Below are positions 8,305 through 42,035 of a stretch of DNA of 64,000 nt, in pieces. Each line of letters opens with the position of its first letter. Position 1 is the stretch's first letter. Both the position numbers and the translations under genes were made by a program. Under the pieces are notes generated by a model that worked only from the letters and a program-made list of their open reading frames with translations, was not told the DNA's origin and searched no databases. This DNA is from Sphyrna mokarran (Eukaryota), in contig JAGIQG010000016.1 of NCBI GenBank assembly GCA_024679065.1, positions 14,074,001-14,138,000 of the forward strand, in the 5' to 3' direction.

Positions 8305-8340
8305 AAGTGGTAAGGCTGAAAGAATTGTTGGAAGAATCAG
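8305..8340 (+). CDS. Coiled-coil microexon 5 (36 nt): EVVRLKELLEES
   Basis: ttttttacttacag|AAGTGGTA...GAATCAG|gtaatt; heptad-patterned peptide. Confidence 0.85.
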
Positions 8341-39708: not shown

Positions 39709-40560
39709 ATAAGAACACAAGATATTCAGCAGAATTAGGCCGCTCGGCCCATCGAGTCTGCTCCACTATTCAATCATGGCTGATATTTTTCCCGCATCAT
39801 TCTACTGCCTTTTCCACATAACCCCGATCGACTTATTAATCAAGAACCTATCTATCACTGTCTTAAAGACATTCAATCACCTGGCCTCCAAGCCTTCTGC
39901 GCAGAGTTGCACAGATTCATCATTCTCTGGCTTAATAAATTTCTCCTCTGGTTTAAAGGATCATCCCTTTAGTTTGAGGTTATACCATCTGAACTTGTTT
40001 TTTTTTCCCTACCAGCGAAAGCATGCAATCCATGTCCACTCGATCTAGGCCTCGCATTATCTTGTAAGTTTCAATAAGATCTCCCCTCATCCTTCTAAAC
40101 TCCACCGAGTACAGACCCAGAGTCCTCAATCGTTCCTCATATGACAAATATTTCATTCCAGGGATCATTCTTGTGAATCTCCTCTGGATCCTTTCCAAGG
40201 TCATCACTTCCTTCCTAACATGTGGGGCCTAAAACTTCTCGCAATACTCCAAATGGGGTCTCACCTGAGCCTTATACAATATTAGAAATACATCATTGTT
40301 CTTCTATCGTAACCCTCCAATCATGAATGTTAACATTGCATTTACCTTCTTAACTGCTGGCTGAATCTGCCCATTAACGTAAAAGGAATCTTGAATAAGA
40401 ATTCTTAAGTCCCTTTGAGAGTCTGATTTCCTCAGAATTTCCCCATTTAGAAAATAGTCTACGCCTCGATTCCTCCTTCCACAATGCGTAACCTCACACT
40501 TTTCCACATTATATTCCATCTGTCACTTATTTGTCCACTCTCCCACCTTGTCCACATTCT
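39709..40560 (-). mobile_element. CR1/HER1 LINE 3' fragment
   Basis: Minus ORFs MEYNVEKCEVTHCGRRN and LERIQRRFTRMIPGMKYLSYEERLRTLGLYSVEFRRMRGDLIETYKIMRGLDRVD. Confidence 0.92.
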
Positions 40561-40574
40561 TCGGTTGAACAGGG

Positions 40575-41083
40575 CAATACCGATGATGATGACGGTGGTG
40601 TCAAAACTAGCACTTGATTTGGATTAAAGTGAGGGAGAGTTGCACAGCGTCAGCCTCTCTCTATCTTCCCAATTCCCATCTGGATCCAGTGGCAAGACAA
40701 GAGTCAAGACGGCTGGAGATGGGACTAGGTGCAATGGATGACCAGGATATCAGTGGTGCCTTGTCCTGCTTTTCGCATTCTACGATGCTTGCACAGACTG
40801 CCTTCTTGACCATTAGTTCCATCCGCTAAATGCACTGGAGTCTGTTTTCACATGCTGGGATAGGCATCTCCCTATCTCACCGAGGGTTGAGACCCGTCGG
40901 CTACTCTCACTTGGTTTAGCTGGCTTGTCGAGGCCTTTGCCCGGGGTTTGGCCGTTGTCGCATGCAAACAGCTACGGGGAGCCACAGATGAGAGCTGGGT
41001 GCCAGGTGGGGGCAAAGGGTGGAAAAGGACGCTACATGTTCTCTCACCAGAAGTACTACCCCTCCCTGACACCCCATACACCC
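40575..41083 (-). mobile_element. GC-rich non-autonomous element, probably derived from an RTE-clade LINE 5'UTR
   Basis: Sharp GC-rich block with (CAT)n-like 3' end on the minus strand and an HDV-like fold at its 5' end; family assignment from recalled similarity. Confidence 0.6.
40904..41075 (-). ncRNA. HDV-like (nested double-pseudoknot) self-cleaving ribozyme, partly degenerate
   Basis: Minus strand: P1 GGGGUGU/AAACCCC, P2 CUCUCAUCUG/CAAGUGAGAG, P3 GGC/GCC, L3 starting UCC, J1/4 GGGCAA, P4 GGCCU-cgac-AAGCC, J4/2 GCUAA with candidate catalytic C at 40919. Confidence 0.6.
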
Positions 41084-42035
41084 TAGCACCTAGGCATTTA
41101 AGAAAGACAGGCTCCTATGAACAACACTATTAATAAAACCTCTCCTTCGAAACTGAAGGCATACTGACTTAGAACCATTTAACAATTACGTCCCTGCCCA
41201 GCAATGAACGTGTACTCCAATTGGAGCATATTAAACGAATTAGACATTACACCCTTTTAGTGTAATTTCTAACCATGTCGTGGACTTTCATACGAGGTCA
41301 CTAAATCACAACAAAAATAATATTTGTGAATTTGATAAAAAGTAATGTTAATTGGTGTGCACGATTGTTCATAATTGTCATGGTTACTTCAGGTAATGCA
41401 ACCATAATTTATTTGGCCCCTTGTGATATTTACATTTGTTTAGCGTCTAAAAGCAATCATGGGATGTACAAGAGCGGGATTGTAAAGGGAAAAGGAAGTT
41501 AATTCGACAATTTCGACAGCCCTGCCATCATGTTCATTGTGTTGACACAGATGTTGTCCAATGAATTTTGGGTTGCTACTGCAGTACATCTTGCCATTGG
41601 CACATATTGCTATCACTGTGTGACAGGAGTGGAGCAATGTCGTGGGTGAAGCAGTAAGTGTTCAGGGAATGATGTTTTCTCCTAATAACATGGAGTTACT
41701 TCAGCGTTGTTGGAGCTACATTTATTTGGCAAATTGGGTCTTTTTTTATAATTTGTAAACCTTACCAGTCTCTCACCCGAACTTGGGGCTACAGACATAA
41801 CATGACCAAAGAAAAGTAGGGTTCATATCATGCAGACATAAGGCTGTTTATGCTGAAAACTTGAGAAAACATTTTCCCTGAATCACAAGTGAGTTAGAGT
41901 TGGGTGTCCCAATGTTTTTAGAGATTGCCATTTTGGGTGGCATGAATAATCATTGTTGAAGTTCAACTCACGTCAGAATGCAATTCAAGACTTGCAACAT
42001 GTAAGTTCATTTAGTGTTTCACAAATTTGTTGCAG

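Follow-up and report, generated by a model that had tools for sequence, protein, structure and literature searches.

In the HDV topology, helix P3 continues straight into P1, and one ribozyme of this fold, drz-Agam-2-1 of Anopheles gambiae, is linked to RTE elements. HDV-like ribozymes are known at the 5′ ends of RTE, R2, R4, and Ingi/L1Tc elements (PMC5786205; PMC6765202; PMC3774820), and in the RTE, R4, and L1 clades cleavage is reported to coincide with the 5′ junction (PMC3774820). Residues G25 and U20 are described as crucial in HDV (bioRxiv 2022.09.22.508989; PMC3774820), and in drz-Agam-2-1 the combination of P1.2 and an extended P2 is reported to speed the ribozyme (PMC4908430).

The locus described here lies in a window of 64,000 nt from the shark Sphyrna mokarran (assembly GCA_024679065.1, contig JAGIQG010000016.1, positions 14,074,001 to 14,138,000), the whole stretch of DNA that was analysed and to which all coordinates refer. 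Its minus strand carries a motif that shares with the ribozymes of retroelements the location at a non-LTR 5′ end, the nested double-pseudoknot order, the catalytic C, and the predicted freeing of the element from a co-transcript. Compared with those ribozymes, as far as the accessible parts of the reports describe them, the shark family differs in having a 28-nt L3 with a hairpin and a duplicated P1 strand. The likeness to drz-Agam-2-1 extends to a short linker, a long P1.2 within J1/2, a 4-nt J1.1/4, a J4/2 of G-C-U-A-A, and an extended P2, which has 12 bp there and 11 bp in the shark family (PMC4908430), whereas L3 measures 7 nt in drz-Agam-2-1 against 28 nt here, and P4 is long there against 4 bp here. 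With the genomic HDV ribozyme, the family has in common U20/G25, a two-pair P1.1, and GCAA after P1.1, a J1.1/4 stretch given as typical of the genomic HDV form (bioRxiv 2022.09.22.508989); it differs in having G1-C37 or A1-C37 for G1-U37, in its large J1/2 and L3 inserts, and in being non-viral.

The RTE fragment and the family it comes from

Two repeat pieces adjoin each other on the minus strand of the window:

40563..41084, minus strand: 5′ fragment of an RTE LINE, ~520 nt, 5′ UTR only, 80–82% identical to the first ~520–545 nt of full-length copies
39710..40562 (lower end approximate), minus strand: CR1-like LINE piece, 5′-truncated, adjoining the RTE fragment, with broken RT-tail frames and matches to repeats at many loci

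The clade of the second piece, whose end motif lies at 39750, is presumably CR1, and we take the motif to be that of a CR1 3′ end. Comparison of the window with full-length copies revealed no other part of the RTE element within it. A genome search returned 966 candidates for the RTE fragment, and among the 40 that were scored, 39 others are 80–84% identical. The majority of 30 fetched copies continue beyond the length of the window fragment; 14 of these, chosen for running past it, were fetched further, and 11 were recovered with both ends. Full-length size, as measured in four uninterrupted copies, is 4055–4075 nt (~4.06 kb). Full-length copies carry interrupted coding sequence for an APE endonuclease and for a reverse transcriptase (RT), with 52–71% protein identity to APE+RT proteins of ~1060 aa; the Pfam matches of these decayed fragments to APE and RT all fall below the cut-off. 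The family ends in an (ACA)n tail and is flanked by TSDs of 9–12 nt. Judged by these sequence features, the carrier family is an autonomous RTE LINE in build (~4 kb, APE+RT, tandem tail, TSDs), the assignment to the RTE clade being made from the build of the element and a by-eye likeness of its UTR to RTE-11_PSi rather than from an RT tree.

The motif had originally been predicted as a ribozyme at the 5′ end of a short, non-autonomous elasmobranch retroelement. An HDV-like fold does lie at an RTE-type 5′ end, yet the terms short and non-autonomous are not supported: what the window holds is ~520 nt from the 5′ end of an APE+RT family of ~4.06 kb. An elasmobranch element is faintly suggested by a shark entry, which at 71% has the highest identity among named proteins; frog, lizard, turtle, and coral proteins are 65–69% identical. 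Bipartite RTE derivatives are already known (PMC5786205), and in this genome short derivatives of 540–580 nt that combine a 5′ part with the 3′ end, tail, and TSD occur elsewhere (L098–L102); 6 of 41 matches span their 5′+3′ junction, five of which were inspected. Within the window, the copy has neither a 3′ piece nor a TSD. It is an ordinary decayed repeat fragment of an old, once autonomous RTE LINE.

Positions 371–529 of RTE-11_PSi resemble the family 5′ UTR (window 40723–40575, minus strand) at near-equal offsets, with ~85% identity by eye (PMC5786205). The likeness to RTE-11_PSi and to the RTE group behind WALLSI and MAR4_MD, which also covers the 3′ ends and the matching spot at which bipartite 5′+3′ derivatives are joined (PMC5786205), rests on regions outside the first 200 nt, that is, outside the ribozyme region. 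The accessible portion of the Kojima supplement contained no homologous ribozyme stretch. The name RTE-11_PSi suggests a turtle host. Taken at the level of sequence, the UTR likeness to RTE-11_PSi together with the protein matches in frog, lizard, turtle, and coral would fit horizontal transfer.

Several further observations concern the structure of RTE copies. Short derivatives comprise L098–L102, G000:C335:19000737, L023, and L193, with clear TSDs in L098 and L100 and weak ones in the others. Their junctions lie a few bases apart, as if such deletions had arisen independently several times. In the derivatives, the 5′ part ends just past a 9-nt stretch that is complementary to a 9-nt stretch where the 3′ piece begins, a hint that RT may skip a looped-out RNA. 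A duplex between the 5′ and 3′ UTRs as the driver of the bipartite deletions is not supported, the duplex ranking 23, 174, 32, and 205 of ~378 in four decayed copies. Internal deletions of 0.1–3.4 kb are present in many both-ended copies (L182, L184, L185, L186, L190, L192, L193), and L038 and L193 have rearranged 5′ junctions with short duplications of the first bases. CR1-like pieces lie at or beside a (CAT)n run ~500–520 nt into the RTE element in L008, L011, L018, and L023, as well as at 40563 in the window, and in L008 and L018 the RTE sequence resumes past the CR1-like piece; an insertion hot spot or template-switch chimeras are possible explanations.

The genome also contains a second, young RTE family (L078–L097), the copies of which are mostly 95–98% alike and have one open frame of 1085 aa, with ~49% protein identity to public relatives. 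Two of its members, L096 and L097, have inverted 5′ pieces. Its unrelated 5′ UTR is GC-rich and structured and starts with two similar G-rich units; neither the HDV descriptor nor any Rfam ribozyme model matched this UTR. Truncated twisters have been mentioned at RTE 5′ ends (PMC7761336).

The HDV-like fold and its L3 hairpin

Read on the minus strand, the motif is composed of the following parts:

41078..41084, minus strand: leader AGGGUGU, proposed as the true P1 5′ strand from the class-B leader, TSD-flanked starts, and energies
41075–41069, minus strand: inner GGGGUGU, originally predicted from the sequence as the P1 5′ strand, more probably the 5′ side of the P1.2 hairpin in J1/2
40997..41074, minus strand: P1.2, the long hairpin domain of J1/2, with a 10-bp base (41074–41065 with 41006–40997)
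40994–40984, minus strand: P2 5′ strand, with 11 bp in the majority and 10 of 11 here
40983–40981, minus strand: P3 5′ strand, GGC
40980–40953, minus strand: L3, 28 nt, with U20 at 40980, C21-C22 at 40979–40978, and G25 at 40975
40972–40954, minus strand: hairpin inside L3, after U26-A27; four of five outer pairs here, five of five plus G-U in the majority
40952–40950, minus strand: P3 3′ strand, GCC; P3 (40950..40983) closes L3
40949–40943, minus strand: P1 3′ strand (family sequence ACACCCC), one pair being lost here through the A at 40948
40942–40937, minus strand: P1.1 3′ strand GG and J1.1/4 GCAA
40936–40921, minus strand: P4, short, three of four pairs here
40919, within 40916..40942, minus strand: C75 equivalent in J4/2 G-C-U-A-A
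40915–40904, minus strand: P2 3′ strand

All helices named in the original prediction are thus present on the minus strand where it had placed them. Its description of this copy is likewise confirmed as regards the single mismatches (inner P1 6 of 7, P2 10 of 11, P4 3 of 4) and the gap of ~28 nt between the P3 strands with a hairpin insert. The window copy is short of ~12 nt of P1.2.

In the column majority of 43 copies, every helix is fully paired (P1 7/7, P1.1 2/2, P2 11/11, P3 3/3, P4 4/4), and U20, G25, C75, A77, A78, and GCAA are retained. The features that define HDV-like ribozymes are found in part: the five helices P1, P1.1, P2, P3, and P4 occur in nested double-pseudoknot order, and C75 with A77/A78 and the U20/G25 pair are in place (C at 40919, U at 40980, G at 40975); L3 has 28 nt family-wide instead of 7–8 nt, with 8 nt only under an alternative P3, and no HDV-type model of Rfam matches. 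The majority L3 consists of U20-C-C-C-Y-G25-U-A, a hairpin of five Watson-Crick pairs and a G-U, and one G. Its catalytic part keeps the canonical spacing, with the insert placed after position 27, on the U27 side. The 28-nt L3 with its hairpin is a family trait. The literature search, which covered sources other than the primary papers of Ruminski 2011 and Webb 2009 and their supplements, yielded no relevant paper on an L3 hairpin, and the hairpin may represent a new variant of the HDV-like fold.

A chance resemblance in a GC-rich UTR was weighed with descriptors of different stringency. A loose HDV descriptor has four matches in the window against ~4 cores per shuffled window (20 shuffles); being equal to chance, it was rejected as evidence. 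This count, like the finding that Rfam reports no ribozyme family in the window or in three loci, is what a fortuitous motif would produce. By contrast, a strict descriptor, composed post hoc once the motif had been seen, matches the window copy, and does so only once in the window; it is passed by 1 of 5000 local shuffles and has one match in 40 shuffled windows, and the family majority passes a still stricter version which 0 of 5000 shuffles pass. Moreover, the motif lies exactly at an RTE 5′ end, where such ribozymes are reported (PMC3774820; PMC5786205). A fortuitous match thus has next to no probability: as measured with the post-hoc descriptor, the HDV-like fold is real and beyond chance. 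Folded under a model that leaves out pseudoknots, the 196 nt have a stability in the ordinary range (z −0.39).

It is also conceivable that L3 is not expanded at all. P3 would then be formed by GGC with GCU at the start of the hairpin, leaving an 8-nt L3 of exactly canonical size and ~20 extra nucleotides between P3 and P1; in the nested model this alternative is only 1.8 kcal/mol worse, and during transcription it would be expected to form first. It exchanges a G-C for a G-U pair, breaks the outer stem of the hairpin, and gives 30 broken cells among the copies against 17. It also puts the insert where P3 meets P1 directly in HDV-type folds. In drz-Agam-2-1, too, the P3-P1 junction is described as direct (PMC4908430). 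We regard an unexpanded L3 as very unlikely and retain P3 at 40950..40983, with the hairpin inside L3. A shifted P1 register borrowing C30 from P3 was rejected by inspection, as U20/G25 would be lost.

When the majority is folded without constraints, a different long stem results (−83.7 kcal/mol) and neither P1 nor P3 is formed, a caveat for any activity claim. This free fold, so unlike the ribozyme fold, would suit a non-cleaving or very slow relic in which the L3 hairpin or competing pairings disable catalysis, an internal promoter sets the 5′ end, and the structure helps to protect the RNA or to initiate translation. The 28-nt L3, far from the 7–8 nt of HDV, CPEB3, and Agam-2-1, points the same way, and IRES-like activity has been proposed for such ribozymes (PMC6765202). 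Against such a relic, the majority has all catalytic residues and five helices intact, a state that would hardly have persisted had the masters not been under selection, and the 5′ boundary coincides with the start of P1 in two different leader variants. We therefore consider a relic unlikely, though less so than an unexpanded L3, and proceed from a family motif that was probably active in the past.

The 5′ boundary of the element and the predicted cleavage site

The original prediction had placed G1 at 41075 and the cleavage site, accordingly, at the element boundary. Neither position is supported: copies start 9–10 nt further upstream with a near-duplicate of the P1 strand, and this is where the family boundary lies. 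When 43 and then 88 5′ ends were aligned, the conserved sequence was seen to start 10 nt upstream of the inner G. A pattern downstream of the two candidate sites gave 63 matches; in the first 30 of these copies, four or more of the last six leader bases are kept in 23, two more copies show a shift of one base, and at most four look like inner starts. A survey of TSDs examined 39 loci, 27 of them with a 3′ end and 16 with a clear TSD (score at least 7). In 13 of the 16, the start lies 7 nt or more upstream of the inner G, and some extra bases are often present; the remaining three start at most 3 nt from it, one of which has lost one look-alike unit.

The leader occurs in two forms. Form A, GGGYGTGTAT, is found at 49 of the 88 5′ ends and form B, without the C, at 18, with 21 unclear. 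Class-B leaders have A at position 1 in 13 of 18 cases and are linked to a subfamily site (p=0.005); in L182 and L186 the leader starts directly after the TSD, leaving the first A outside it. The P1 3′ strand can pair with either form, with form A by way of a bulged C, and with form B through six Watson-Crick pairs and A1-C37, the substitution described as the most effective replacement for G1:U37 (PMC1874588). The inner strand thus offers a perfect P1 that is off the boundary, and the leader a P1 at the boundary with A1-C37 or a bulged C; for the bulge inside P1 that the commoner leader needs we have seen no precedent. The window copy belongs to class B, and its leader P1 retains five of seven standard pairs.

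In the free fold, the strand at 41075–41069 pairs with 41006–40997. In a nested model with forced pairs, which leaves out the pseudoknotted P2 and P1.1, the energies (kcal/mol) with the leader as P1, with the inner strand as P1, and with no P1 are −64.3, −59.0, and −60.3 for the majority, −63.3, −58.9, and −57.2 for class B, and −52.1, −40.9, and −50.5 for the window copy. The leader is favoured over the inner strand by 5.3, 4.4, and 11.2 kcal/mol, respectively, and forcing the inner strand of the window copy into P1 is 9.6 kcal/mol worse than having no P1.

These data bear on the possibility of a genuine ribozyme that cleaves at the inner G (41075), the leader of 9–10 nt stemming from uncleaved RNA or from the transcription start. 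The inner strand is a perfect 7/7 match in the majority, with G1-C37 and no bulge; the full-length copies L041 and L044 start at or beside the inner G, and up to four of the 30 unbiased copies may do so as well. Most copies, however, carry the leader between unrelated flanks. A cut at the inner G would remove it, so that leaders present in most copies would not have been templated by RNA cleaved there. In the models, moreover, P1.2 sequesters the inner strand, which as a P1 strand is also less favourable in energy than the leader. Cleavage at the inner G is, in our estimation, distinctly unlikely, slightly more so than a relic. Since the window copy is of class B, the site predicted by the leader reading is 5′ of A41084 at an A1-C37 wobble, 9 nt upstream of the earlier placement, and this is the likely cut site.

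Decay of the copies and the proposed role of the motif

Copies differ from the majority by about 7–16%, and non-CpG substitution amounts to 6.7% at paired and core sites, 7.8% at other ribozyme sites, and 7.0% downstream. Across 88 copies, the L3 hairpin pairs comprise 340 unchanged, 34 still paired, and 42 broken cells, and the catalytic C is kept in 80; the catalytic core is kept in 11 of 43 copies, including that of the window, few of which also have a full P1. Copies decay neutrally from a few masters, and covariation among them cannot therefore test the fold. The covariation test proposed with the original prediction could be carried out on 88 copies, and its outcome speaks neither for nor against the fold: double changes are rare, and paired sites mutate like others, as expected of neutral drift. 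Searches for a homologous 5′ UTR outside the genome gave one locus with an unrelated UTR in metagenomes, none among viral contigs searched by protein, and two loci in prokaryote genomes, both without a 5′ UTR; pattern scans of viral sequences returned 0 and 53 matches, none of the 53 being BLAST-similar. RTE-like APE/RT coding sequence was also noted in two bacterial MAG records (L046, L047), where it is probably animal contamination.

The window copy has lost pairs in P1, P2, P4, and the L3 hairpin, and its ribozyme is probably slow or dead, to judge from these changes. A crude scan identified plus-strand candidates for 36-nt exons at 8305–8340, 53729–53764, and 63038–63073, which flank the RTE fragment; the three encode similar helical peptides (VVRLKELLEES, LENLKEICSDK, IENVKKLVSEL). 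The earlier claim that the motif is antisense to a host gene finds slight backing in these candidates, and the fragment is a probable antisense resident of an intron. Most likely, the window copy has no present function.

Given the observed sequence, pairing potential, family boundary, and element build, we infer that the ~190 nt at the 5′ end of the RNA of active masters would fold as an HDV-like double pseudoknot. By analogy with the known role in RTE and R2 elements, the ribozyme would cut the element out of read-through host transcripts and so produce the 5′ end of its RNA. The first 7–8 nt would constitute P1: in the subfamily to which the window copy belongs they read AGGGUGU and include an A1-C37 wobble, and in the commoner one they read GGG(C)GUGU, a single C being bulged. 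The inner GGGGUGU, 9–10 nt inside, would close the long P1.2 hairpin, and P1.2, short linkers, and the 11-bp P2 would pinch P1 and P2 together, as described for drz-Agam-2-1 (PMC4908430). With the L3 hairpin on the U27 side, U20/G25 and the P1.1 core would stay intact, and the insert would presumably be tolerated. Taken as a whole, the reading of the locus as the 5′ fossil of a once-autonomous RTE element, with an HDV-like ribozyme, a leader P1, and an L3 hairpin, appears to us reasonably probable. Only tentatively do we go further and propose that a vertebrate RTE had an active, hitherto undescribed HDV-like ribozyme with a stem-loop in L3 by the active site, in which a duplicated P1 strand, by forming P1.2, steers cleavage to the first base, and which standard descriptors and Rfam miss.

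If this proposal is true, J1/2 and P4 would be joined by L3 as a third site at which the HDV fold accepts natural insertions. Should the majority RNA cleave, the fold would tolerate a hairpin in L3, and engineers would gain an additional insertion site; the UTRs of RTE-1_MD are reported to serve in gene-insertion tools (PMC13708176), by which we imply no kinship of the shark family to RTE-1_MD. Cleavage of the majority RNA would also mean that searches for a short L3 and the Rfam models miss a set of retrotransposon ribozymes, and it would reveal the way in which elements of this RTE group obtain their 5′ end.
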